14,356 nt of DNA, from IMG/VR virus record IMGVR_UViG_2526164619_000014, one strand, 5' to 3'. Below, in pieces: positions 1 to 14,356 of the stretch. The position numbers were made by a program, and so were the translations under genes. The notes beneath the pieces are model-generated. The model did not search any database and was not told where the DNA came from. It saw only the letters and a list, made by a program, of their open reading frames with translations. Source of the DNA: a virus (taxonomy: Duplodnaviria > Heunggongvirae > Uroviricota > Caudoviricetes). The stretch's first letter is position 1, and each line of letters starts with the position of its first letter.

Positions 1-756
1 TTATTCAGAATCAATATCTTTTAAATCATCCTGAATCGCTTGTGCGTTCGGATTTTCCTGCGGTTTGAGTTCGCCGCCATTAGCGATGAAATCATGACGC
101 TGGAAGTACGCTTCGCGCACCATAATATAAGGATCGGACGACTGACGCAGCAGACCATCGGAATCCAGCAGCTGAGCGCGGGTTTCGATCCCTTCAAGCG
201 TCCATTTACCCACAGACATCGGCCAGGTCAGCCAGGAAAGAACCGGGTAAAGACCATCCGCCATATCACCACCGTCATCACGCAGCGTGAAGCTACCGTA
301 AAACGGTAACTGAACGTAAGGCCCATAACCCACGCCATAATGACCAAGCGTACTACCGAAGCGGTGAGGTTCAGTCCGTTGCAGTTTCGGGTTCGCCATC
401 CCTGCAACATCAATAAAGCCGCCCATCCCCAAAATGGTGTTCAGGAAAAAGCGGGTAAAGTGGACCATCCCCTGATAAGGGTCGCCCTGCAAGAAGTAGT
501 TAACCATCACCGCAGGTTCTTCAAGGTTGCCGGTAAAGTTGCTCAAACCGTTACGCGCCGGTTGCGGAACATAATCACGCCAGGCGACAGCGACCGGTCG
601 AACAATATACGGGTCTAATACATTGAAGTTGAAGTTGTACATGGTGCGGTTGAACCCTTCTAACGGGTCAGAACGCCCTTGCTGATCTGTACCGGAACTC
701 GCACACCCCACCAGAAGCGTAGTTCCCAGAGCAAGCGCCGACAGGCGAAGCTTCAT
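1..756 (-). CDS. mlaA: MlaA/VacJ outer-membrane lipoprotein (phospholipid transport)
   Basis: 251-aa ORF whose stop codon complement sits at window positions 1-3. N-terminal signal peptide with lipobox LVGC. Translation recognised from memory as enterobacterial MlaA/VacJ. Host-like composition. Confidence 0.9.
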   Translation of the reverse strand: MKLRLSALALGTTLLVGCASSGTDQQGRSDPLEGFNRTMYNFNFNVLDPYIVRPVAVAWRDYVPQPARNGLSNFTGNLEEPAVMVNYFLQGDPYQGMVHFTRFFLNTILGMGGFIDVAGMANPKLQRTEPHRFGSTLGHYGVGYGPYVQLPFYGSFTLRDDGGDMADGLYPVLSWLTWPMSVGKWTLEGIETRAQLLDSDGLLRQSSDPYIMVREAYFQRHDFIANGGELKPQENPNAQAIQDDLKDIDSE

Positions 757-2304: not shown

Positions 2305-3590
2305 ATGAGTACAGATATGGCCATTAATGTGCTTTCCCCCAAACAGATAGAAAACGCCAAGCCGAAGACCAATGATTACAAACTTACCGATGGAGGGAGT
2401 TTGTATCTACTGGTACGAAAGACTGGTGGAAAATACTGGCGTATGAATTATCGTTTTGATGGAAAACAAGTGACATTGGCATTAGGGGTCTACCCAGATG
2501 TCTCACTTGCAACAGCGCGGAAACGGCGTGATGAAGCCAGGCAACTACTAGCCGATGGTCGTGATCCTCGCGAAGCAAAGAAACCCAAAAAGGAAGACCC
2601 AATTTCCCCCACGTTCGAGAGTGTTGCCAGAGAGTGGCATAGTGGAACGATGGGGCATCCTGAGTGGAAAGAGATCACCCGTAAAAAATTCTCCGAGAAA
2701 TGGAAAACCACCTCTTTCCTGCCATCGGTTCAAAGCCTATCGATACGCTCAAAACCCGTGACTTGATGCCGATGCTGGTTGAGATGACTGAGAAAGGAAT
2801 TGGTGCCACAACGAGCCGTGTAAAAACCACTATGACGAGCATCTTCCGTTATGCCGTGCAACGTGGAATTGTCGATTACAACCCTGCCCACGATCTAAAA
2901 GGTGCAATTACGGCCCCCAAAGTACGACATCGCCCCGCACTACCTCTCGAACGTTTACCTGAACTGTTAGCGAAAACGAGAAGTTACACGGGAAGACCAT
3001 TGACTCGCCTAGCAGTTCTCTTTTCCCTGCACACTTTTGTGCGATCCAGCGAACTACGACATGCCAGATGGGAGGAGATCGACATTGAAAATGGGCTATG
3101 GACGATACCAGGACAACGTGAAGAGATCGCAGGGGTTAAATTCTCAGATCGGGGTGCAAAGATGGGGGCTGCTCATTATGTCCCGCTATCTAGTCAGGCT
3201 ATCGGGGTACTGGAGGATATAAGGAAAATCAGTGGTGAATATCTGCTGGTTTTTCCCGGTGACAGCAACCCATATAAACCGATGAGCGAAAACACAGTTA
3301 ATAAAGCACTGCGAACGATGGGTTACGACACTCAAACTGATGTTTGCTTGCATGGGTTCAGGGCGATGGCCTGCTCTGCACTGACCGAATCAGGACTCTG
3401 GTCACGCGATGCAGTTGAACGGCAGATGAGTCACCAAGAAAGAAACGAAGTGCGGGCAGCATATGTGCATCTTGCGCAGCACATGCAGGAACGCCGCAGA
3501 ATGATGCAATGGTGGTCTAATTATCTGGAACTAAATAAGGACGAATTCCATGCTCCTTATGACTTATCAGGTATTAACATTATCAATTAA
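2305..3590 (+). pseudogene. int: P4-type tyrosine integrase, reading frame broken in an A6 run (2683-2688); N-terminal part 2305..2766, catalytic part 2700..3590
   Basis: N-terminal ORF carries the P4-integrase-type N-terminal domain (..YKLTDGGSLYLLVRKTGGKYWRMNYRFDGKQ..). Second ORF carries the tyrosine-recombinase catalytic domain (..HGFRAMACS.. and C-terminal ..AAYVH..). Adding one A to the run at 2683-2688 gives a continuous ..RKKILREMENHLFPAIG.. reading. Start is ATG 2305 or 2317; the 2257 extension of the ORF track is unlikely. Lies directly 3' of the tRNA, as expected for the integrase of a tRNA-inserted element. Confidence 0.85.
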
Positions 3591-3620
3591 ATACTCTTAT
3601 AATTTAAAACAGAGGTCATA

Positions 3621-4502
3621 ATGCAGCATTCAACAGAGAATGAAACTATATTCTTAGGAAATCTATGGATTGACAAAAAAATACCACCATTAGAATATTG
3701 TTCATTTGAACGCGCTTCAAGACTATTAGAATGCGAGATTGATGATTTATTACATCTATACGAAATAGGCGCTTTTAATATCGCATTCAAGGCGGATGGA
3801 CTTGCAGTTAGATTTAATGTTAATTTCCTCAATAAAAATCAGAAAATGGAAATTGACTTAATTCATCCCGTATTAACTAATCAATCACTAGAGATGGAAT
3901 TTTCAACAATATGGTATGACCTTAAAGATGATTCCTTTGAACATTTTGAAAATGGGCTTCAAATTATAGGATTTGCCTGTGGTATTTGGTACGCCGATGA
4001 TATGATAAGTGACATAAAAAATGGATTAGCTATAGATCCAGATTATGAATTCAGGCTTAAACCGGTAAAAATACGAGATAATGTTTTGATGGCAACGGCC
4101 TCATATGAAGGAAATAAGGTCATTGAGATTCCATTTGAAGATCTTCTTATCATGCGAAGAGATTTAGAGTTAATATGGAAATCAGTAAAAACTGGAATTC
4201 CTATGCCAAGTTTACTTACGAAAAGAATTTCATCTGAACCTAAAATCCCCAAGCGATTAAATAACACTGCTGAGCATCATGCAAAAAATAGGGAGGGGTT
4301 ATTAAATGCAGCCATATATATATTAGCAAAATACCCAAGCGAATGTCGTGGTGAAAGAAAAGAGATAAGTCCTGAAAAGTGGACTAACGCCATAATTAAA
4401 CATTTAGGAGAGCTACCTCCAATATTTATCACTAATGAACAAGAAATCTTAAGAAAATTACGATTAGCGGTTAATCATGCGGGATTAAAACAAAAGGGGT
4501 AG
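3621..4502 (+). CDS. hypothetical protein (293 aa), AT-rich, no recognisable domain; sits between int and alpA
   Basis: Uninterrupted ORF with a good Shine-Dalgarno (AGAGG shortly upstream of ATG 3621). Clearly lower G+C than the flanking int and alpA genes (judged by eye). No motif I can assign. Confidence 0.6.
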   Translation: MQHSTENETIFLGNLWIDKKIPPLEYCSFERASRLLECEIDDLLHLYEIGAFNIAFKADGLAVRFNVNFLNKNQKMEIDLIHPVLTNQSLEMEFSTIWYDLKDDSFEHFENGLQIIGFACGIWYADDMISDIKNGLAIDPDYEFRLKPVKIRDNVLMATASYEGNKVIEIPFEDLLIMRRDLELIWKSVKTGIPMPSLLTKRISSEPKIPKRLNNTAEHHAKNREGLLNAAIYILAKYPSECRGERKEISPEKWTNAIIKHLGELPPIFITNEQEILRKLRLAVNHAGLKQKG

Positions 4503-4604
4503 ACTGAAACAATCTACAGGTAGAGTTGATTACACTACCTTCACAGCATTTTGATATCCCCATAGTATCTGCCGTGTTCATTACATAATACGGCAGGTAA
4601 TTTC

Positions 4605-4820
4605 ATGACATTAAAAACTTATCCTATCACTGGACATGCCCGCCCACGAGCTACTGCTGACTTTTTGCAAATAAGTACGGTTACTCTCTGGCGCTGGGAA
4701 AAGAACAATCCTGAATTTCCCAAATCTATACGCATTTCAAAACGGGTATCTGTTTACGATGCACAAGAAATTAGGCAGTGGGTTAAAGCTCAATCAGCAG
4801 GATTGGAGGAAGTAGTGTAA
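4605..4820 (+). CDS. alpA: AlpA-family phage transcriptional regulator / excisionase-like HTH protein
   Basis: 71-aa ORF; the segment ..FLQISTVTLWRWEKNNPEFPKSIRISKRVSVYDAQEIRQWV.. matches the AlpA/Vis-type winged-HTH pattern as recalled. Shine-Dalgarno AGGT 6 nt upstream of the ATG. Confidence 0.8.
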   Translation: MTLKTYPITGHARPRATADFLQISTVTLWRWEKNNPEFPKSIRISKRVSVYDAQEIRQWVKAQSAGLEEVV

Positions 4821-4838
4821 TGACAATATTAACAAAGC

Positions 4839-4860
4839 TGGGGAGAAAAAAGCCTCCCCA
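4839..4860. terminator. bidirectional hairpin between the convergent alpA and RHH genes
   Basis: Stem TGGGGAG (4839-4845), loop AAAAAAGC, stem CTCCCCA (4854-4860). Lies between the alpA stop (4820) and the stop of the minus-strand ORF (4870). T-tracts on either side are only moderate. Confidence 0.4.
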
Positions 4861-4869
4861 ACGTATTAA

Positions 4870-5064
4870 TCAATTCTTTGGTTCTAAACCTCGGCTTTGT
4901 AACTCTTTGCGTAGAATGCGCTTGATCCAAGCCGCTAGCGATTCATCGCCATCCTGCTGTTGTGCTTGTTCCATCAGTTCACGCAGTTCAGGGTCAAGTC
5001 GGAACTGGAATGGCGGATTCCCACGTCTTTCATTTTTGTGTGTTGACACGTCAATTACACCCAT
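4870..5064 (-). CDS. ribbon-helix-helix (Arc/CopG-like) DNA-binding protein, putative repressor
   Basis: 64-aa ORF; ..PPFQFRLDPELRELMEQAQQQ..ESLAAWIKRILRKEL.. has the beta-strand / helix / helix layout of RHH regulators. Perfect palindromes lie immediately upstream of its start. No convincing Shine-Dalgarno, so confidence is moderate. Confidence 0.5.
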   Translation of the reverse strand: MGVIDVSTHKNERRGNPPFQFRLDPELRELMEQAQQQDGDESLAAWIKRILRKELQSRGLEPKN

Positions 5065-5098
5065 TGTAATGTATTTATGTGTAATGACACATTACACA
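5042..5098 (+). promoter_or_regulatory. rightward sigma70-like promoter (TTGACA-N16-TGTAAT) overlapped by operator-like inverted repeats
   Basis: TTGACA at 5043-5048 and TGTAAT at 5065-5070. Perfect 9-3-9 palindrome TGTGTAATG-ACA-CATTACACA at 5078-5098, with related half-sites ATTACAC (5054-5060) and TGTAATG (5065-5071). Lies between the divergent RHH and Icd-like genes. Confidence 0.4.
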
Positions 5099-5180
5099 CA
5101 GAAAAACAAAATAGCAACGCCCCGGAGTGTTTGCAGCAGCACCGAGGCGTCTGACCAGCACGTTATATGAGGTAACGAAG

Positions 5181-5357
5181 ATGGCTAAACAGAAGTGTAC
5201 CTGGTTATTTGCGGCGATCAACCGCAGTCAACGCAATGCCCGTCCTGTGATGTTAAGGATCACCGCAGATAACGAACGATCAGCGCGGCGCAGACTTGCC
5301 CCGGACTATGTACTGAGCTTTGCCGGGCGCATTCCCTGCGGAGGTGAACATGCGTAA
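5181..5357 (+). CDS. Icd-like (P4 host cell division inhibitor-like) small protein
   Basis: Start ATG 5181 with GAGG 8 nt upstream. The segment ..WLFAAINRSQRNARPVMLRITADNERSARRRLAPDYVLSFAGRIP.. matches the Icd-like pattern recalled from P4-like prophages. The 5127 start in the ORF track is a less likely upstream extension. Confidence 0.6.
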   Translation: MAKQKCTWLFAAINRSQRNARPVMLRITADNERSARRRLAPDYVLSFAGRIPCGGEHA

Positions 5358-5709
5358 TTATCCGCACCCCGGCGAACGCTGGCAGCATGAACGTGGCTGG
5401 ACGGTCACGATTATCCGATTAATAGAAGCCTCGCCCTCTGTGGCGCTGGTTAATCCTGAATTCAGCTGTGAAGTGCTGATACGTCATGACAGCGACAACA
5501 AGCTTTCTTCCTGCCCTCTGGCATGGTTTGAACAGCGGTATACGCGCCTGTTTGATGTACCGCTCTTGAAGCCTGCACCAGCTCCTGCTGGCGGTAGTGG
5601 TTCCGGCCCGCTGACACTGCATCCGTCTGTGCTATTTATCCGCTGGCGGGAGCGTAGCATACGGCGTTCTGCTGAGCCTGACGACGGTCACTATTCAAAG
5701 TTTCTCTGA
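5350..5709 (+). CDS. hypothetical protein (about 120 aa)
   Basis: Start ATG 5350 preceded by GGAGGTG; 8-bp overlap with the Icd-like gene suggests coupling. No recognisable motif. Confidence 0.5.
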   Translation: MRNYPHPGERWQHERGWTVTIIRLIEASPSVALVNPEFSCEVLIRHDSDNKLSSCPLAWFEQRYTRLFDVPLLKPAPAPAGGSGSGPLTLHPSVLFIRWRERSIRRSAEPDDGHYSKFL

Positions 5710-5850
5710 CAAAATACCGCTGAAAACGGAGTAATCCACGATGAATATTTCAAACGGGCACAACGGTGCTCAGGGCCACACTTTGCCTGAAAAACACAAT
5801 ACCGGTGCTGAGGTGTACTGGCAATAGCGGACACTACCATTTGTTCTTTT

Positions 5851-6713
5851 TTAAGCAGCCATCTGATGATATTTTTCCCTGAAGGCTGCCGGGGAGATAT
5901 TTCCCAGACGAGAGTGACGACGCTGACGATTGTAGAAAATCTCAATGTATTCCCGTATTACTGAGATGGCTTCATCCCGGTTATTAAAACGATAGTGGCT
6001 CAGGCTCTCATTTTTCAGCGTTCCCCAGAAGCTTTCCATCGGAGCGTTGTCGTAACAGTTACCTTTACGCGACATTGATGTTTTCAGACCAGACTGCTCC
6101 TGTATGACCCGGTAATCGTATGCGCAGTACTGTGAACCTCGATCAGAGTGGTGGATTAGCCCGGCAGGTGGGCGCTGGCTCCTGAGCGCCATAAACAGGG
6201 CTTTACCTGTCAGCTCTTTTGTCATGCGCTCTCCCATGGCGTAGCCGACAATTTCGCACGTATAAACATCTTTAATGCCAGCGAGGTACAACCATCCCTC
6301 CTGTGTGGCAACATACGTCAGGTCCGCCACCCAGACCTGATTTGGTGCTGTAGGAGCGAACGTCTGGTTCAGCAGATTTGGCGCAACTGGCAGATTGTGG
6401 TTCGGGTTCGTAGTCGCTCTGAACTTGCGTTTCTGCTTACAGCGTAGCCTTAGCTCCTTACGAAGACGTGCCAGTCGGTCACGACCAACGATGATGCCAT
6501 TCTCTGCCAGCTCCGTCTGGAGCCGCCGGGTTCCATATGTTTCGAGTGCGGATATGTGCCACCTTAATCTCCAGTTTTAGCCGCCCATCACTTTGTTTTC
6601 TGTCTGAGGGTTCATGCTGTACCCAGTTGTAATAACCGCTCCTGGATACACCAAATACCTGACACATCGCTTCAATGGGAAATTGTTGTCGCCATTGTTC
6701 GATTAACGCGTAT
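5851..6713 (-). pseudogene. IS3-family transposase OrfB (DDE catalytic domain); reached from orfA by the usual -1 frameshift but carrying an additional frame break near 6540-6545
   Basis: N-terminal part in the -1 frame (..AEKYALIEQWRQQFPIEAMCQVFGVSRSGYYNWV..IRTR). Catalytic part 5851..6330 (..HHSDRGSQY.., ..GNCYDNAPMESFWGTLKNE..) is in a different frame. Minus-strand read CGCACTCGAAACATATGG is consistent with one extra base or two missing bases. Confidence 0.7.
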
Positions 6714-7005
6714 TTTTCAGCGACTCCTGTGCAAAATACGCTGTTGCTTTTTTTAATATATCTCGCTCAAGGCGAGCTTCATTTAACGCCTTACGCAGTT
6801 GCAGAATTTCAGATTCCAGTTCAGCCACCGTGCGGGAACCAGGAGTACCGAGCCCTTTTCTGGCGGCGGTAACCCATTGTCCTAAAGTGCCTTCAGGAAG
6901 GGATAATCGGGAAGCGCCTTCACTGATCGAAAGTTGATTTTCAAGAACCGTTCTGACAGCTTCGGCTTTGAACTCTTTAGAGTAACGTTGGTTTTTTCTG
7001 CTCAT
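6703..7005 (-). CDS. IS3-family transposase OrfA (HTH / leucine-zipper part)
   Basis: 100-aa ORF MSRKNQRYSKEFKAEAVRTV.. ending ..KKATAYFAQESLKNTR, the typical IS3-family OrfA C-terminus. Overlaps the orfB frame in -1 at the A-rich motif GAAAAAT (about 6707-6713). Confidence 0.9.
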   Translation of the reverse strand: MSRKNQRYSKEFKAEAVRTVLENQLSISEGASRLSLPEGTLGQWVTAARKGLGTPGSRTVAELESEILQLRKALNEARLERDILKKATAYFAQESLKNTR

Positions 7006-7285
7006 TATTAGCTCCTTCTGATGCCATTCTATTTCAGGAAGGAGTGTCCGTTAAACTCAGGCTACCTCATGCTTTTGCCTATGGGTTGTCAGAGGACAGT
7101 TTCGGAAAGCTGACCCGCGCAAGAAATGCCTGCGACATGCTCCAGCTTCTCTTTTCTGAATACCCGTCTCAGGCCGGAGCACTGGACGCAGGCTGTGCGC
7201 CTGGTGTCGCCGCGCTGATGGAGTACCTGCTGGCAGATTTGACGGATATTGCACACAGCTGCGCACTGATTGAAGGAGGTGCCAG

Positions 7286-7669
7286 ATGAACCAGCCGCAG
7301 GTTTCCATTTTCCCGGTAGAAATGACCACCGCGCTTTACCGGCGGGCTATTGCTTCAGCATGGCGGCAGAAAATGCTGAACGAAACTGGCAGTGATCAGT
7401 ATGGTCCGCACAGCCTGACGGTGGAGCGTATTGAAATGGCCATTGCGCTGCATATCGAGTGCGTACTGATTAACGAGTACGGCGAAGTGCAGGGCGCCGC
7501 TGCCGCGCTGGCACTGCTGACTGACATGCTGGAGCCGTCACTGCTGACCGCGCCGCCGGTACTGACCGCGCGCGGCTGTGAAGTGATGGCGGAGATGTAC
7601 CGCACGCTTCCGGCGGCATTTGATGACTTCTGCAGTACCGGTGTGACGTTGTATGAGGGGGAAGTATGA
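7286..7669 (+). CDS. hypothetical protein (127 aa), second gene of the primase operon
   Basis: ATGA overlaps at both ends (7286-7289 and 7666-7669) couple it to the flanking genes. No recognisable motif. Confidence 0.6.
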   Translation: MNQPQVSIFPVEMTTALYRRAIASAWRQKMLNETGSDQYGPHSLTVERIEMAIALHIECVLINEYGEVQGAAAALALLTDMLEPSLLTAPPVLTARGCEVMAEMYRTLPAAFDDFCSTGVTLYEGEV

Positions 7670-10338
7670 CAATACAGACGGTTACGCAGGTTTCAGCCGC
7701 CGCACGGGGGAAATGGCCCGTTATTCTGCAGATGCTGCGTATTGATGTACCTGAAAACGGCAGGCACGGTCCCTGCCCGAAATGTGGGGGCAAGGATCGT
7801 TTTCGCCTTGATGACCTTGACGGGCGCGGGACGTGGATCTGCAGCCAGTGTGGCAATGGTGACGGTCTGGATCTGGTTAAGCTCGTAACCGGTTACAGCG
7901 TCAGAAAGGCTGCGCAGGAGGTGGCGCAGGTGCTTAATGTGCCGGATATGCAGGAACTGCCTGTTAAGCCTGCCAGACAAAAAGCCCCTAAACGCGACAT
8001 GGGTCTTACCGTGGCGGCGCTGATGAAAGAGAGCCACACGGGAGAAAGCGCCTATCTGACAGGAAAAGGGTTCGCCGGATACCCGGCCTCTCTGACCGGA
8101 AGCGTACAGCATATCAGCGGTAAGGATTTTCCTGCCGGTTCCCTGCTGTTACCACTCACGACCAACACCGGAGCCGTGACCGGTGCACAGCTTATCGCCC
8201 CGACGGGTGAAAAAAGCATACTGCCCGGCAGCACGATGAAAGGCGCGTTTGTGTCGCTCAGCCCGTTACCGTCTGAACCACCGATACAGGTGGTGATTAC
8301 CGAAGGTTACGCTACGGCGCTGACGGTAAGCCAGCTCACTGCCGGATGCGTAGTGGCTGCCATATCTGCGGGCAACCTGCCCAATGTGGCGCAGTCGCTG
8401 CGGGCACGCTGGCCTGAGGTAAAAATTATCATCGCCGGTGATAACGATTTTCAGGACGGGGGTGAGAATCCCGGCAGAGCCTTTGCTGAACGGGCGGCAA
8501 AAGCTGTTGGCGGCTGGATGACGCTGCCACCAGGAGAGATTAAGGCTGACTGGAATGACTTTCATCGGGAGCACGGTATTACCCGTGCCCGTGAAGCCTT
8601 TCGCAACGGTCTGGTACTCTGCGGGGAAAGCCGCACGCAACTGCCGCACGGGTTCCGTCTTACCCAGGAATATCTCTGGTATGAAAAGCAGGTACAGCGC
8701 AACGGTGAGACGGAGATCCAGAACGTCAAAATATGCAGCCCGCTGCGCGTGACGGCAATCACCTGCGATGCCGATGGCGGTAACTTCGGACGACTGCTGG
8801 AATGGGAAGATACGTGGGGTGAGTGTCGCCGCTGGGCGATGCCGATGGAAATGCTGAGCGGCAGTGGTGAGGAACTGCGCCGGGTACTGCTGGTTAACGG
8901 GCTGTCTTATATCAGCACCACCGGTGAGGCACGCGCACGCCTGATGGAATATATCTCACTGTGTAAACCGGAACGCCGCGTGACCTGCATCAGTCGTACT
9001 GGCTGGCATGGTCAGGTTTACGTCCTGCAGGATGAGGTCAGCGGTGAAGGTGCAGAGGGTGTCATTCTCCAGACCACTTCCGTGCAGGGGCGTGATTTCC
9101 GCGTGTCGGGCACAACAGAGGAATGGCGGGAGCATGTATCCCGCTACTGTACCGGCAACTCCCGCGTGGCATTTGCTGTCAGCCTGGCCTTTGCTGCACC
9201 ACTGTTACGGCTGGTTGGTATGGACGGCGGCGGCTACCACCTCAAAGGGGAATCGACAGACGGTAAGACCACCACCATGAAAGCAGCAACCTCCGTCTGC
9301 GGCGGGCCTGACTACTGGCAGACATGGCGGGCCACCGGCAACGCGCTGGAGGGATGCGCCAGCCGCCGCAACGATGCCGCCATGATGCTTGATGAGATCC
9401 GGGAAGTTGACGGACGCGAGGCAGGCAATATCGCCTACATGCTGGCAAACGGTCAGGGCAAGGGCCGTGCCGGTACGGACGGTGAGCTGCGTACCCGTAA
9501 GCAGTGGCGCCTGTTGTTCTTTTCAACTGGCGAATTGTCTCTGACCGAACATGCGGCAAAGGCCGGTGAGCGTACTTTTGCCGGGATGGAAGTCAGGATG
9601 ATCCAGATCCCCAGCGATTCCGGGAAGTTTGGCGTTTTTGAGGAGCTGCACGGCTTCGACAGCGGCAAGGCTCTGGCAGAGCATCTTGAATGGGCCACGT
9701 CCTGCTACTACGGTTCGCCGTTCCGGGAGTGGCTGAAAGCACTGACCGCTGATCTTAACGGACTAACGGCACAGGCAAAATCGCTGATGAAGGAATATGC
9801 TGCCGCCCTGACTCCGAAAGATGCAGGCAATCAGGTGGGCCGGGCTGTGAACCGCTTTGCACTGGTGGCGATGGCAGGTGAACTGGCAACCCGTCTGGGT
9901 ATCACCGGCTGGCCTGAGGGTGAAGCACTGCGGGCAACCCGCGTCTGCCTGAACGCATGGCTGAAAGATCGCGGGCACACCGCCAATCAGGAAGATATCG
10001 CCGCACTGGAGCAGGTTCGCAGTTTCTTTACCGCGAATCAGTACAGCCGCTTTGCAGACTGGTATGACGAGCGCAACCGCCCCGGCAATATGGTGGGCTG
10101 GCGAAGGGTGGAGAAAGGCAGTACCGCGCAGGGCACGGAAGCTGTCACTACGTTCTATGTCATGCCGTCCGGCTGGAAAGAAATCTGCAGGGGATTTGAC
10201 CCGCGCAAGGTGGCGCGTCTGTGCGCAGATCGTGGATACCTGCTGCCCTCCACTGATGGCAAACTCCAGACAACCATTCGCCCGCCAGAGATGAATCCCC
10301 GCAGGCTCTATGTCTTCAACAGCGAGGTGCCGGGTTAA
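7666..10338 (+). CDS. P4 alpha-like primase/helicase (zinc-binding N-terminus, TOPRIM primase, D5-type P-loop NTPase)
   Basis: 890-aa ORF. N-terminal CPKCGGKDRFRLDD..WICSQCG zinc-ribbon typical of P4-family primases. Walker A GESTDGKT at about residue 525. GAGGGGG Shine-Dalgarno before ATG 7666. Confidence 0.9.
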   Translation: MTIQTVTQVSAAARGKWPVILQMLRIDVPENGRHGPCPKCGGKDRFRLDDLDGRGTWICSQCGNGDGLDLVKLVTGYSVRKAAQEVAQVLNVPDMQELPVKPARQKAPKRDMGLTVAALMKESHTGESAYLTGKGFAGYPASLTGSVQHISGKDFPAGSLLLPLTTNTGAVTGAQLIAPTGEKSILPGSTMKGAFVSLSPLPSEPPIQVVITEGYATALTVSQLTAGCVVAAISAGNLPNVAQSLRARWPEVKIIIAGDNDFQDGGENPGRAFAERAAKAVGGWMTLPPGEIKADWNDFHREHGITRAREAFRNGLVLCGESRTQLPHGFRLTQEYLWYEKQVQRNGETEIQNVKICSPLRVTAITCDADGGNFGRLLEWEDTWGECRRWAMPMEMLSGSGEELRRVLLVNGLSYISTTGEARARLMEYISLCKPERRVTCISRTGWHGQVYVLQDEVSGEGAEGVILQTTSVQGRDFRVSGTTEEWREHVSRYCTGNSRVAFAVSLAFAAPLLRLVGMDGGGYHLKGESTDGKTTTMKAATSVCGGPDYWQTWRATGNALEGCASRRNDAAMMLDEIREVDGREAGNIAYMLANGQGKGRAGTDGELRTRKQWRLLFFSTGELSLTEHAAKAGERTFAGMEVRMIQIPSDSGKFGVFEELHGFDSGKALAEHLEWATSCYYGSPFREWLKALTADLNGLTAQAKSLMKEYAAALTPKDAGNQVGRAVNRFALVAMAGELATRLGITGWPEGEALRATRVCLNAWLKDRGHTANQEDIAALEQVRSFFTANQYSRFADWYDERNRPGNMVGWRRVEKGSTAQGTEAVTTFYVMPSGWKEICRGFDPRKVARLCADRGYLLPSTDGKLQTTIRPPEMNPRRLYVFNSEVPG

Positions 10339-10370
10339 GGCTTTGCGTGAGTCTTATTTATTAAGGGTAA

Positions 10371-10560
10371 CAGGTGAAACAGGTGGAACAACCGTATTTT
10401 ACAGGGCTGAACCTGTTCCACCTTCTGAAATAGTGAGGTGGAACAGATGTAACGCCAGCCAATCCGCTGTTCCACCTTGTTACCCGCGATGTTCCACCGG
10501 TGCAGTGTATATAAATGCCTTATAAAACAAAGCTGTAACACATGTTTCACCTGTTCCACC
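10371..10560. repeat. iteron array (putative replication origin / crr-like region): six copies of TGTTCCACC in both orientations plus two GTTTCACC variants and an AT-rich box
   Basis: TGTTCCACC at 10414-10422, 10468-10476, 10490-10498, 10552-10560; GGTGGAACA at 10382-10390 and 10437-10445; variants at 10373-10380 (complement orientation) and 10544-10551. AT-rich stretch 10505-10540. Lies directly 3' of the primase gene. Confidence 0.6.
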
Positions 10561-10648
10561 GCATCAGGGACATAAAGCAGACTGAAACAGAGGGCATTTT
10601 TATCTGGCTGGCTTTCATAGCCACGTCTGAATAACCGCAAGCGCCCGT

Positions 10649-10704
10649 TGTGCCAGCCACCACACACTGAGCACCGATAGTGTGCTTGTGTCAGCCACGA
10701 CACA
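10649..10704 (+). promoter_or_regulatory. candidate late promoter region for the sid-like operon with two TGT-N12-ACA dyads (Ogr/Delta-type activator sites)
   Basis: TGT 10649-10651 / ACA 10664-10666 and TGT 10687-10689 / ACA 10702-10704, 35-90 bp upstream of ATG 10739. The dyad is short enough to occur by chance, so this is tentative. Confidence 0.35.
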
Positions 10705-10738
10705 ATTGACGTAACGAACCAACCCGACAGGAGAAGTC

Positions 10739-11482
10739 ATGAACAATACCGCAGTAAATAACAACCTTTCCACTTTTCCGGCTGTAACGCAGCGGGCACT
10801 GGAAACCATGAACACAGCCAGAAACGCATGGCTTGAAGCACGTCGTCAGCAGAAAGCGGCAGCGGATAATATTGCGACAATCCGCCAGCGTCGCGCTGAA
10901 ATGGAAGCCACGACGAACACACTGAATGAGGAGTGGCGCACGCTGTTTCGTGAAAGTCAGGGCGTGGTCTCAAAGGAAATGAAAAAACTGCGCACGGAAA
11001 TTGCGCTGGGACGAGAAACGCTTGAGGATTTTGATGAGCTGCTGGCGGCTCAGGAAAGCGAAAATGCACTTTTGCCGCAGAAAGCTGCAGAATTAGCCGG
11101 AAAGTATATCCACGCGCATAACATTCTTGTGGATATTCGCGCAAAACAAATCTGGGAGGATTTTATGCAGTCGCATGGAAAAGCGCTTATTCAGACGCTG
11201 AGCCTGCTTAAATCCACAATGGGCCGGGAAGCCAGTGCCGTTGTGGGTGTGGTGAATTCAGTTAATGACCCGGACACAGTGCTGAAAGACTTTATTCATA
11301 AACATATCACCAGACCGGCTCTGGCTAACGATGCGATGCCTGAGCAGGACCCGGTGTTTAAACTGGCGGGAGTTGCCCCGGATTATGCGGCGCGTCTGGA
11401 TTTCAGTAATCAACTCTCTCCGGCAGCTATGCATAAAATTAAGGTTCGTCAGGAACTCGCTGAGAAGGAGAAAGCAGTATGA
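10739..11482 (+). CDS. sid: Sid-like protein (P4 capsid size-determination / external scaffold homologue)
   Basis: 247-aa alpha-helical, charged protein; size and position (first gene of the late operon, followed by Psu-like and Ogr/Delta genes) fit P4 Sid. N-terminus resembles the Psu-like protein downstream. Assignment by context and recalled similarity only. Confidence 0.5.
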   Translation: MNNTAVNNNLSTFPAVTQRALETMNTARNAWLEARRQQKAAADNIATIRQRRAEMEATTNTLNEEWRTLFRESQGVVSKEMKKLRTEIALGRETLEDFDELLAAQESENALLPQKAAELAGKYIHAHNILVDIRAKQIWEDFMQSHGKALIQTLSLLKSTMGREASAVVGVVNSVNDPDTVLKDFIHKHITRPALANDAMPEQDPVFKLAGVAPDYAARLDFSNQLSPAAMHKIKVRQELAEKEKAV

Positions 11483-12030
11483 CGGCCCGAGGCACGCCTG
11501 ACCAGGCACTTACCAGTTTTCGGAATGCCCGTATTCTGTGGGCCGGACATAGTGAGAGCCGAAAAGCCGTTGAACAACAGATAACATCTCTCCTCGCTGC
11601 CACAGAAAAACCAGCAGATTATGCCCGACAGCTCGAATTACTGCGGGAACGTCTGGATGTGCTGAAATGGCAAATTAACTGTGCTGCGCGCGAATGCATT
11701 TACGCGCAGCATTTACTGATGGAGGCCTGCACAGAAGCCGCTCTCAGCAATTTTATGCAGGCGAATGGGGCAGCCCTGACATCTGCACTGGCTCCGTTCC
11801 TGAAGGGGCGCGGAGGGGTTGACGTTGCGTCCCGTATATTACGCAGTGCTCTGGTTCGCCAGCTGGCAATAACACCGCCTGAAATTGCCGGGGATTATCG
11901 TGAGATCCTGGATGAATCCGGTTTGATACCTGACCCCGGGATGATTCGTGATTGCCAGGACTCTTACACCCCGGCACAACATCTGCATTTTCAGCAACGC
12001 CTGAATGACATTAACGATATACAGGAGTGA
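11479..12030 (+). CDS. psu: Psu-like protein (P4 polarity suppression protein homologue)
   Basis: 183-aa ORF, ATGA-coupled to the preceding gene. Contains ..KWQINCAA.., ..FMQANGAALTSALAP.., ..YTPAQHL.. which match motifs I recall from P4 Psu (not verified by search). Confidence 0.6.
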   Translation: MTARGTPDQALTSFRNARILWAGHSESRKAVEQQITSLLAATEKPADYARQLELLRERLDVLKWQINCAARECIYAQHLLMEACTEAALSNFMQANGAALTSALAPFLKGRGGVDVASRILRSALVRQLAITPPEIAGDYREILDESGLIPDPGMIRDCQDSYTPAQHLHFQQRLNDINDIQE

Positions 12031-12308
12031 TTTTAAGGGCACTTAAATGTCCGGAATGCGGTACAGTTGCACACGCCAGAACAGCAGCCTATGAAGCTCC
12101 GTCAGTTAAACGCTCGTGGTATCAGTGCCAGAATCTGGAATGTTCCTGCACATTTACGGCACTGGAGAGTGTGGATAAGATAATCATGAAACCCCGGCGC
12201 AATGAACAGGAACCAGACAAATCACACCCCCCGGTAAAACAACAGCAAACGCTCAATCGCTATGGCTCCGCGTCAAAACTGTCAAGCCGTCAGCAGATTC
12301 CTGTCTGA
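12027..12308 (+). CDS. Ogr/Delta-family zinc-finger late-gene transcriptional activator
   Basis: ..CPECGTVAHART..YQCQNLECSCTFTALESV..IMKP.. is the Ogr/Delta signature (C-x2-C ... C-x4-C). Apparent GTG start overlapping the psu-like stop (GTGA). Confidence 0.85.
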   Translation: MILRALKCPECGTVAHARTAAYEAPSVKRSWYQCQNLECSCTFTALESVDKIIMKPRRNEQEPDKSHPPVKQQQTLNRYGSASKLSSRQQIPV

Positions 12309-12328
12309 TTAGAAAAAACGCCCACGTA

Positions 12329-12353
12329 ATCCCGGTCGAGTACCGGGATTTTT
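12329..12353 (+). terminator. intrinsic terminator of the late operon
   Basis: Perfect 8-bp stem ATCCCGGT / ACCGGGAT with 5-nt loop, followed by TTTT; 20 bp after the Ogr/Delta stop codon. Confidence 0.7.
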
Positions 12354-12380
12354 AACACCTTTTCCCTGGCTGGCCTGAGA

Positions 12381-12495
12381 GCGCATGAGTGCATGTCTAT
12401 AGCGCATGAAAACGCATGAACCTTATGCACCATTTTTGACGAGAAAGCCCTTGTGTGGTGGCTTCTGAGACGATTTATGAGGTGCATGAAAACCA
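12381..12495. repeat. cluster of GCATGA(A) direct repeats in the intergenic region after the late operon
   Basis: GCGCATGA 12381-12388, GTGCATG 12389-12395, GCGCATGAAAAC 12402-12413, GCATGAA 12414-12420, GTGCATGAAAACC 12483-12495. Function unknown. Confidence 0.4.
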
Positions 12496-12791
12496 GTCTG
12501 TTAAGCGAAGCGGGCAGGCGTGCGGGGCTGTTCGCATCAACATAAAAATAACGGGCTGATATAGTTATAAAATCAAATGAACTCTTTTAGTACGACATGG
12601 GTATGTGCGCCAGTAGCAACGTCAGCCCCCAAGCTTTCTATTGTTCTTTTCTGTTGTACCATCAATACGTACCGATTAGCTCCTAAGCATCAATATCAGT
12701 TTGAACGTATTGCTTTGAACTAATTTTTAGATGATTTTTTTCATTAAAAATTATAATGTTGTAGATAAAAAGAGAATCTTATAGAGGCGTT

Positions 12792-13480
12792 ATGTCAAAT
12801 AAAGTTGATGTTTTTTGAGCCGAGTTAGCCATGTATCACAGTTTGTATTGGTGGCATTTGCTATTTTTGGATATTTTTATACAGTAAGACCAATTTACCA
12901 AAAGGAACTTTTATCAGAAGAAATTGCAAAAAAAGAAGTTGAATTAAATAAATTAAAAACTGCAATGGAAAACTCCCAAAAATTTATAGAGAATAATAAA
13001 ATCTTACGAAAAGAATTGGAGGGAAGCATTGCCAAACTTGATTTACAATACAAAGAATCAGAAGAAAAATTAAATTCAATAAATTCTGAACTAAGAAAAA
13101 CTTTAAATGAACTAAATAAACAAAAGACCATTGCCAAAAGAGCGGTCAATGCAAACAACAAGAATCTTGAATCTGTTTTCTGGGAGAATTTTTCGGGGCT
13201 AGTTGGAGTAGTTTATATTTCTAAGAGCACAGATTTTGTGAACAATACACTGGGTGACGCCAAAACAGCCTATAATACTCCTAGTAATTTATATATATCT
13301 CCTTATGATGCAATTAATGAAGCATTAAAAAATGGCAATCATAACTTTATCTCAAGTTCAGAAAATGTCCCTGAAAATATCCGCAACAAAATTCTAGCAA
13401 AGATCCGTCGCGCTATTGAAAAAAATAAGATTTCATTAACAAAAAACCTATCGGTTTTGATGAAAAAATTAATAGCCTGA
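12792..13480 (+). CDS. cargo protein A: membrane-anchored coiled-coil protein of unknown function (about 229 aa if read from ATG 12792 through a one-base frame break in the T6 run 12811-12816; the ORF track gives TTG 12815..13480)
   Basis: AGAGG Shine-Dalgarno then ATG 12792 encodes MSNKVDVF and stops at TGA 12816-12818; the long ORF continues in the -1 frame from 12815. The joined N-terminus MSNKVDVFLSRVSH.. aligns with the in-frame N-terminus of the downstream paralogue. One hydrophobic helix (FVLVAFAIFGYFYTV), then a K/E-rich coiled-coil-like region. Strongly AT-rich. Confidence 0.6.
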
Positions 13481-13921
13481 TAAAAACTATAGAGTCAACT
13501 AAGTTACGCAAAAATGAAAACGAAATAATGAAAAATAACACTGCAGAAAGAGAACTATCATCTTATATTTTCCTGATAAATGGTCAATCAAGAATCCGCG
13601 CCATGGATTTCTTAAAAGACATTCAACATTTAGACTAATATTGGATATCTTATAATGAATACTAATACTAAATTTGATTTATGGTTGATTAGAGTAAGTT
13701 ACATTGCCCAAGTTGGATTGTTTTTTTGACAACCTTTACAATATTTTACACAGTAATTCCGATATACCAAAATGCAAATCTGCAGGAATCAATAGCAAAA
13801 AAGAAATCGAATATAAACAATTACAAGACAAAGAAAAACTCTATATTTAAAGTTAAGAAAGGAATATTCAAGAAAATATGTTGTTGATGCAATCTCCCAA
13901 TGTTCTCCAACAGAAATACTT

Positions 13922-14356
13922 ATGCGTCAACCATCTGAAGATGACAGTAAAAAATCACATGATGTAAGAATGAAGGAATTAAAAACATTTTTAAACAAAG
14001 ATATAACCAGTTGCTTTGAAAAAACTTTTTATAGCAACCCTTACATTAAGGAATTAAGAGACACTGATCAACAAAATATTCTTCTTAAAATTAAAAATTT
14101 ATCCCCCACTATAACTAAACTACATGAAAAATATAAAGCAGAATTTGATGACGATAGCAAGTTATTGAATACTGGAAAAGAAAAATCGACAAGATTAAAA
14201 GAGGTGGAAGATTATTTAATAGGAATAGGAGGTTACACAGAAAACAGCAAAAAGGATTTTGAAAACTCATACATAGAATCTGGAGCATATGACTTGGTTG
14301 TAAGGTATGGTTTTGAAGTCAACGATCTATTTTCCAAAACCATCAGAGACAATTAA
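13922..14356 (+). CDS. cargo protein B, C-terminal 144 aa as an intact ORF; the full paralogous gene probably starts at ATG 13655 and is interrupted by three one-base frame breaks (T run 13721-13727, A run 13797-13802, A run 13834-13838)
   Basis: Reading 13655..14356 with one base added at each of the three runs gives MNTNTKFDLWLIRVSYIAQVGLFFLTTFTIFYTVIPIYQNANLQESIAKKEIEYKQLQDKEKTLYLKLRKEY.. which aligns with cargo protein A over about 70 residues. The C-terminal half is unrelated to protein A. Stop codon is the last three bases of the window. Confidence 0.5.
   Translation: MRQPSEDDSKKSHDVRMKELKTFLNKDITSCFEKTFYSNPYIKELRDTDQQNILLKIKNLSPTITKLHEKYKAEFDDDSKLLNTGKEKSTRLKEVEDYLIGIGGYTENSKKDFENSYIESGAYDLVVRYGFEVNDLFSKTIRDN

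Follow-up and report, generated by a model that had tools for sequence, protein, structure and literature searches.

The window (the whole stretch of DNA analysed here, 14,356 nt) carries a P4-like satellite that is located at a tRNA-Arg gene and is interrupted by IS600. There is 100% identity between the window and contig AKMY01000056.1 of the Shigella flexneri K-315 draft genome (GCA_000268165.1), a contig assigned to this strain in PMC6397287. The features of the locus are:

2058–2130, + strand: tRNA-Arg (CCU), argW, identified with ARAGORN; its 3′ end is the satellite attachment site (attL side)
2317–3590, + strand: P4-type tyrosine integrase gene (Pfam), split into ORFs of 149 and 296 aa by one missing A
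5809–7069, − strand: insertion of IS600 (IS3 family), flanked by the duplicated 3-bp target TGC at 5806–5808 and 7070–7072
7666–12308, + strand: intact satellite core, delimited by the Pfam families of the called genes, the annotation of relatives and repeats
7666–10338, + strand: alpha-type primase gene (Pfam Zn_Ribbon_Prim, Toprim_3 and DUF927)
10372–10560, + strand: iteron region (repeats)
10739–11482 and 11479–12030, + strand: two Psu-family genes (Pfam Psu twice)
12027–12308, + strand: Ogr/Delta zinc-finger gene (Pfam Ogr_Delta)
12792–13638, + strand: cargo gene A, encoding 282 aa once repaired; a hydrophobic segment at the N terminus precedes a K/E-rich stretch, no known family
13655–14356, + strand: cargo gene B, 234 aa when repaired; paralogous to cargo A over ~53 aa at the N terminus (49% identity)

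The gene content is that of known P4-like satellites, namely a tyrosine integrase linked to a tRNA gene, an AlpA regulator (Phage_AlpA), an alpha-type primase with Zn-ribbon, Toprim and DUF927 domains, two Psu-family genes and an Ogr/Delta gene, and the RefSeq annotation of relatives concurs. The integrase matched the Pfam families Arm-DNA-bind_3, Phage_int_M and Phage_integrase, and in the annotated relatives the tRNA-Arg is likewise followed by the integrase. A repeat of the tRNA 3′ end (ttcgattcctgcagggacac) was found ~690 nt past cargo gene B in the same-lineage contig L016. The AT-rich cargo genes are positioned after psu/delta and before attR, and therefore between psu and int on the circular map, the location of a hotspot of variable (anti-phage) cargo in P4-like satellites (Rousset et al. 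2022, PMC9122126). The window differs from these systems in that its cargo matches no known PADLOC or Pfam family and IS600 interrupts the element. No significant match in Pfam, PADLOC or PHROGs was obtained for cargo A, cargo B or a 293-aa ORF, the PHROGs matches of cargo A being marginal only. Because the cargo matches no known PADLOC defence family or Pfam family, it is by its position that a defence role may be suggested.

The IS600 copy shares 98.8–99.0% identity with annotated IS600 copies and lies on the minus strand, with TG...CA ends, the target duplication, and orfA and orfB with an A7 slippery site at 6748–6754. The insertion interrupts a gene of 94 aa whose immediate downstream neighbours are the DUF5375–primase genes. 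It is absent at this site from seven E. coli relatives, and contigs of the same lineage as the window end or start at the IS600 junction.

To the left of IS600, the window was compared with the same-lineage contigs L025 (GCA_049894805.1; two samples, with six similar contigs) and L028 (Logan assembly of SRR066117), and to the right with L016 (GCA_026136285.1), L030 (GCA_026022055.1, with one similar contig) and L031 (Logan ERR6004966, with four similar contigs). These control assemblies are taken to be short-read based, because their contigs break at IS edges. Together with more distant relatives, the comparison revealed eight homopolymer runs, all on the + strand, that are one base shorter in the window than elsewhere:

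2683–2688: A6, A7 in every other assembly (seven complete genomes, L025, L028, L008 and L010); breaks the integrase
5847–5852: T6, against T7 in L025 of the same lineage and in the reference copies of IS600; located shortly after the orfB stop, no frame broken
12746–12750: A5, A6 elsewhere; intergenic, upstream of cargo A
12811–12816: T6, T7 elsewhere; first break of cargo A
13441–13446: A6, A7 elsewhere; second break of cargo A, giving the stop at 13478–13480
13721–13727: T7, T8 elsewhere; cargo B
13797–13802: A6, A7 elsewhere; cargo B
13834–13838: A5, A6 elsewhere; cargo B

A preliminary description of this DNA had listed five frame breaks outside the IS, at A6 2683–2688, T6 12811–12816, T7 13721–13727, A6 13797–13802 and A5 13834–13838. 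Direct reading of the sequence confirmed the position and length of each run, and all five breaks are present, but the list was incomplete: the run A6 at 13441–13446 had been overlooked, giving six frame breaks outside the IS. With the two losses that break no frame (A5 12746–12750 and T6 5847–5852), the window contains eight single-base losses in A/T runs, three more than first described. The accompanying generalization, a loss of one base in an A or T run at each break outside the IS, holds for all six.

It had also been proposed that one base added to each listed run restores the reading frame, which proved correct for the integrase and for cargo B. Restoring one A at 2683 yields an integrase of 424 aa that agrees with WP_000996991.1 at 424/424 residues, and the integrase span is 1422 rather than 1421 nt in 39/40 of the matches listed. 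When the three runs of cargo B are restored, the product is 234 aa and identical to the intact protein. Cargo A, however, needs a second correction. With the base at 12811 alone, the frame stops at 13478–13480 (229 aa), whereas restoration at both 12811 and 13441 gives a protein of 282 aa that is identical to that of L016.

The most direct evidence on the origin of the breaks comes from the same-lineage assemblies. Over 13,169 aligned bases, the comparison showed 0 substitutions and eight one-base losses, all eight in the window. The contigs of these assemblies are interrupted at the IS1 and IS600 junctions that the window also has. L025 begins within the same IS1, and its sole differences from the window are A7 at 2683 and T7 at 5847; L028 has A7 at 2683, and the two contigs extend into the IS600 copy present in the window. 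To the right, L016, L030 and L031 begin at or inside the same IS600 junction and, across ~7.3 kb, differ from the window only by one additional base at 12746, 12811, 13441, 13721, 13797 and 13834. Since assemblies of the same clone are base-identical to the window except for one extra A or T per break, we judge the breaks to be sequencing errors. Read from the sequence comparisons, the integrase and cargo frame breaks are very probably (at roughly 95%) an assembly artefact and not decay. The preliminary description had favoured homopolymer under-calling over slippage, and the clone-mates bear this out, with a longer run at all eight sites, whole genes and no substitution.

The frame breaks could in principle represent inherited pseudogenization of a satellite that is decaying in the Shigella lineage. 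The real IS600 insertion is common to the lineage, and in the unrelated strain L008 the same integrase is interrupted by a nonsense codon that looks genuine. However, nine or more same-lineage contigs on either side have the longer runs and intact ORFs, no shortened run is shared by descent, and proportionate substitutions are lacking, which makes inherited decay extremely improbable.

More distant genomes were consistent with under-calling in the window. The comparison with the same locus in related genomes, which had been put forward as a check, showed each of the five originally listed runs to be one base longer in seven complete E. coli genomes. The ratio of indels to substitutions was 7:10 between the window and its closest relative, compared with 1:39 between two relatives (Fisher p = 5e-4). 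In relatives up to 43 substitutions apart, all runs of ≥5 nt kept their length, and among ~20 other assemblies none had a shortened run at any of the eight sites, the lengths being identical throughout. The converse explanation, over-calling by the other assemblies, was ruled out because the longer lengths alone leave the frames open and are shared by ~20 assemblies of varied laboratory and pipeline origin.

The exact broken ORFs were also sought in independent assemblies, and only the source assembly has them without another lesion that explains them. The 296-aa integrase fragment was found in three places, none supporting A6: the source itself, L008, which combines A7 with the nonsense codon W117*, and L010, a contig that begins with A7. 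An exact-ORF look-up returned the 210-aa cargo A fragment from the source assembly alone. The 144-aa cargo B fragment was present on a metagenome scaffold (L012) that has A7, T8 and A7, the split being due to a 25-bp deletion.

The invariance of the runs also bears on whether slippage at them might serve a function, as in phase-variable tracts or where transcription or translation is programmed to shift frame, with K-315 caught in the other phase. In form, A/T runs of 7–8 nt within genes of an anti-phage hotspot look like contingency loci, in which mononucleotide runs lie in coding sequence and a change in length shifts the frame. Contingency tracts are recognized by length polymorphism among close isolates, whereas here the other assemblies, including relatives ≤43 substitutions apart, are identical at all eight runs. 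The tracts are short (6–8 nt), their in-frame length is universal and several have changed together within one gene; three simultaneous ‘off’ states in one gene would be useless as a switch, and non-coding runs are equally affected, two of them in all. A switching function consequently carries hardly any probability.

The criterion of comparing tract lengths across strains has been applied before: tract lengths that follow clades were considered real, and sporadic outliers were suspected to be errors (PMC4746626). The pattern of the losses resembles the homopolymer miscalls of flow-based and nanopore sequencing, which generate false frameshifts and ‘pseudogenes’ in draft genomes. As in such miscalls, the changes are confined to runs, depend on run length and go in a single direction, and the window losses are private to one record and contradicted by its clone-mates. 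All eight changes are deletions within A/T runs, and none of the 12 G/C runs is shortened (0/12). By true A/T run length, the loss rate was 0/46 at 5 nt, 2/13 at 6 nt, 4/11 at 7 nt and 1/1 at 8 nt. Two of the eight losses are at non-coding positions, and the process is therefore blind to genes.

Unlike miscalls spread over a whole contig, the errors of the window are patchy. Outside the IS, 18/25 A/T runs of ≥6 nt are correct and 7/25 are shortened; because many long runs in the same contig are correct, the error is not systematic. The final 1.65 kb of the contig, whose end corresponds to window coordinate 14393, has a GC content of 30.7% and contains six of the losses, although the statistical support for clustering in the cargo was marginal (Fisher p = 0.07). 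The Logan assembly of SRR066117 ends at 12682, precisely where the low-GC DNA starts. A uniform contig-wide error rate was rejected, because no losses were found in four A/T runs of ≥6 nt in the upstream neighbouring core genes of the source contig or in three such runs in the core part of the window. The errors are local to the satellite, chiefly to its low-GC end.

A different account of the same pattern is that the eight losses are real and private to K-315, reflecting a burst of −1 slippage that silenced the integrase and cargo after divergence from the clone-mates, for example during laboratory passage or while mismatch repair was temporarily defective. Gene decay is well known in Shigella genomes, and the locus does contain real IS1 and IS600 insertions. 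Slippage indel rates climb exponentially with run length (PMC8510543), which would also yield the length gradient observed here. Yet mismatch-repair-defective E. coli accumulated 30,061 substitutions versus 5,324 indels, or ~5.6 substitutions per indel (PMC8510543), while the comparison with the clone-mates gave eight indels and no substitutions; at the genome-wide ratio of the defective strains, the chance of 8/8 events being indels is ~3e-7. Slippage would also have to account for all eight changes going in one direction, two of them at non-coding positions, for one 700-nt gene being struck three times with nothing else altered there, and for six losses falling in low-GC DNA beside a contig end, the kind of place where a consensus tends to be least reliable. 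We consider private slippage very unlikely. If true, it would mean that an integrase and a two-gene module in a P4-like anti-phage hotspot were silenced simultaneously in K-315 without accompanying substitutions, pointing to a localized or transient defect of replication fidelity on low-GC mobile DNA.

Under the preferred reading of an assembly artefact, eight A/T runs with a true length of 6–8 nt would each have been recorded one base short during base calling or consensus building. Six of the eight shortened runs would interrupt the frames of the integrase and the two cargo genes, and the other two would have no effect on a frame; the true genome would encode three whole proteins, an integrase of 424 aa, a cargo A product of 282 aa and a cargo B product of 234 aa. 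The likely cause is a homopolymer-prone platform, probably of the 454 type. This is suggested by the date of the AKMY accession, from the 2012 era, and by the passage of the contig through three IS elements (IS110, IS1 and IS600), points where other assemblies break. Thin coverage in the ~31%-GC cargo adjoining the contig end may have aggravated the problem. The sequencing platform of the K-315 assembly was not found in the literature, as papers with the accession or strain only list or cite the genome.

These results leave biological understanding unchanged; their value is in curation. The K-315 GenBank record under-reports at least three intact genes, and drafts of this kind would inflate any tally of ‘pseudogenes’ or ‘degraded satellites’ based on them, which matters in Shigella, where gene decay is studied. 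On the corrected reading, the lineage has a P4-like satellite with a whole integrase and a whole, uncharacterized two-gene cargo in a known anti-phage hotspot. The earlier suggestion that the element may be functional stands as far as the integrase and both cargo proteins are concerned, but not for the 94-aa gene, which is split by a real, lineage-wide insertion.

This IS600 insertion is the sole genuine disruption of the satellite. A satellite gene split by a real IS600 insertion, with 3 bp of the target duplicated, fits IS-driven decay in Shigella (IS1/IS600 expansion), from which the window frameshifts differ in being no part of genuine decay. An IS1 and an IS110 are present just upstream in the contig, and all of these insertions are common to the clone-mates.

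The locus holds, at argW, a P4-like satellite whose integrase and two-gene cargo are both intact. Gene identities were taken from the RefSeq annotation of the near-identical loci of seven complete E. coli genomes (L001–L007) and from precomputed Pfam hits, and give the following map of the window:

1–756, minus strand: mlaA, left flank
1050–1982: yfdC, left flank, before tRNA-Arg
2058–2130: tRNA-Arg(CCU), with the P4-like satellite after it
2317–3590: satellite integrase
3621–4502: AT-rich 293-aa ORF, between integrase and AlpA gene
4605–4820: AlpA, followed by small genes
7286–7669: DUF5375 gene
7666–10338: alpha-type primase
10372–10560: iteron field
after the iteron field, before the Ogr/Delta gene: two Psu-family genes
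ending at 12308: Ogr/Delta gene
12792–13638: cargo A, AT-rich
13655–14356: cargo B, AT-rich

The 293-aa ORF is conserved in all relatives and had no match in Pfam, PADLOC or PHROGs. The iteron field, located 3' of the primase gene, consists of about nine copies of TGTTCCACC / GGTGGAACA in both orientations, putative iterons which we take to resemble those bound by the P4 alpha protein at ori/crr.

The preliminary description attributed the frame breaks outside the insertion sequence to five A/T runs (A6 at 2683–2688, T6 at 12811–12816, T7 at 13721–13727, A6 at 13797–13802 and A5 at 13834–13838), whose lengths and positions are exactly as claimed. The comparison with related genomes that it had proposed was carried out base by base, and all five runs proved one base shorter in the window than in the seven relatives. 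The list was incomplete, as it missed a one-base loss within cargo A (A6 at 13441–13446); a further loss outside the insertion sequence is intergenic (A5 at 12746–12750), and an eighth, T7 to T6 at 5847–5852, lies within IS600 just beyond the orfB stop. One added A at 2683 restores an integrase identical to the relatives' protein at 424/424 residues, and three run repairs restore the frame of cargo B as an intact 234-aa protein. For cargo A, the proposed single repair at 12811 leaves a stop at 13478–13480, and only with the additional repair at 13441 is a 282-aa protein obtained.

An exact-protein look-up traced the window, at 100% identity, to contig AKMY01000056.1 (assembly GCA_000268165.1), which PMC6397287 gives as Shigella flexneri K-315 from Bangladesh. 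Other, independent assemblies of the same clone were retrieved with lineage-marking proteins, namely the 50-aa remainder of the gene split by the IS and the yfdC and primase alleles of the window. On the left side, L025 (GCA_049894805.1; two samples, plus six similar contigs) begins within the same IS1 and, at its other end, covers 74 nt of the same IS600. Across 5883 bases it shows no substitutions, its only differences from the window being A7 at 2683 and T7 at 5847, and it encodes a 424-aa integrase. The A7 at 2683 is also present in L028, a left-side Logan assembly of SRR066117. On the right side, L016 (GCA_026136285.1), L030 (GCA_026022055.1) and L031 (Logan ERR6004966, with four similar contigs) start at or within the same IS600 junction, show no substitutions over ~7.3 kb, differ only by one extra base at six cargo-side runs, and all encode cargo A of 282 aa and cargo B of 234 aa. 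Over 13 169 bases, the clone-mates thus differ from the window by no substitutions and eight one-base A/T-run losses, all in the K-315 record. That same-clone assemblies without substitutions carry the longer runs supports the preferred reading of the preliminary description, and we consider it about 95% probable that the frame breaks are an assembly artefact rather than a biological feature.

The losses depend on true run length, affecting 0/46 comparable A/T runs of 5 nt, 2/13 of 6 nt, 4/11 of 7 nt and the single run of 8 nt, and none of 12 comparable G/C runs; all eight changes are deletions. Real slippage mutations could also shorten such runs, but this is unlikely, since among L001–L006, with up to 43 mutual substitutions, no run of at least 5 nt varies in length. 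The window differs from its nearest complete-genome relative by seven indels and ten substitutions, against one indel and 39 substitutions when two relatives are compared (Fisher p = 5e-4). Mismatch-repair-defective E. coli accumulated 30 061 substitutions versus 5324 indels (PMC8510543); at this genome-wide ratio the probability of eight of eight events being indels is near 3e-7, a figure that local run density would soften but not rescue. PMC4746626 accepts tract lengths as real where they follow clades and suspects error in sporadic outliers; in the present case one record alone is the outlier, within an SNP-free clone. Additionally, two of the eight losses affect no gene, which fits a technical process better than selection or switching. 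The sole indel among L001–L006 is non-coding, A1 versus A2 at window 10403; it divides the satellite into two sub-lineages, L002, L003, L004 and L006 versus the rest, and no other indel polymorphism in the relatives looks genuine.

As to the origin of the artefact, the K-315 contig reads through IS110, IS1 and IS600, where all other assemblies of the clone are interrupted; this passage and the accession's age suggest a longer-read, flow-based platform of the time. Flow-based platforms of that period are known for under-calling long homopolymers. Six losses fall in the final 1.65 kb (30.7% GC, versus 44–55% elsewhere), a low-GC stretch that stops 37 nt short of the source contig end, although the clustering is marginal (p = 0.07). 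Thin coverage of the low-GC cargo is a plausible reason, as the SRR066117 assembly stops at window 12682, the exact start of this cargo, and the source contig ends just beyond cargo B. In L028, which otherwise matches the window, a private A6 to A5 loss at 4270 (window 4283–4288) shortens the 293-aa ORF to 227 aa; the SRR066117 read set therefore also yields homopolymer loss, at a different run.

The IS600 insertion (5809–7069, target duplication TGC) is the genuine lesion of the satellite, absent from the seven relatives. The gene that it interrupts, of 94 aa (phrog_14861), lies immediately upstream of the DUF5375 and primase genes. Compared with IS600 copies annotated in E. coli, the minus-strand orfB is 2 bp short at window 6543 (CGCG to CG) and reads as broken; this loss, which is not in a homopolymer and which same-lineage contigs stop short of (L030 begins at 6627), may be either real or an artefact. 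In a different strain (L008, Logan SRR12174406), the integrase has a W117* nonsense codon at 9965–9967 (window 2665–2667) with the A7 run intact, apparently a genuine inactivation that arose independently; the satellite copy there carries different cargo, a 487-aa SEC-C-domain protein.

The cargo pair (12792–14356, 31% GC) was found in only 7 of 5426 complete E. coli genomes. The two proteins had no Pfam or PADLOC match and nothing significant in PHROGs; their N-termini are paralogous (~53 aa, 49% identity) and include a hydrophobic stretch. On the circular map the pair lies between psu and int, which is where Rousset et al. (PMC9122126) locate the hotspot for anti-phage genes in P4-like satellites; this position makes the uncharacterized pair a candidate module with a possible anti-phage role. 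In L007 (E. coli CH4811, NZ_CM166345.1, labelled complete), private losses in cargo A, A7 to A6 and G3 to G2 at 13031 and 13123 (window 12928 and 13021), lead RefSeq to annotate the gene as a 51-aa and a 133-aa fragment; this record, too, probably holds an artefact of that kind. In metagenome scaffold ERZ28639201 (L012), homopolymers are in the long form throughout, and cargo B is split by the loss of 25 bp between AAGAAA repeats (L012 1025, window 13831–13854).

Beyond the ends of the window and source contig, L016 carries, in the region 7980–8196, attR (the tRNA-Arg 3'-end repeat) ~690 nt past cargo B and, directly after it, a second integrase gene with an Arm-DNA-bind_3 domain. In this lineage argW therefore holds two islands, arranged in tandem.
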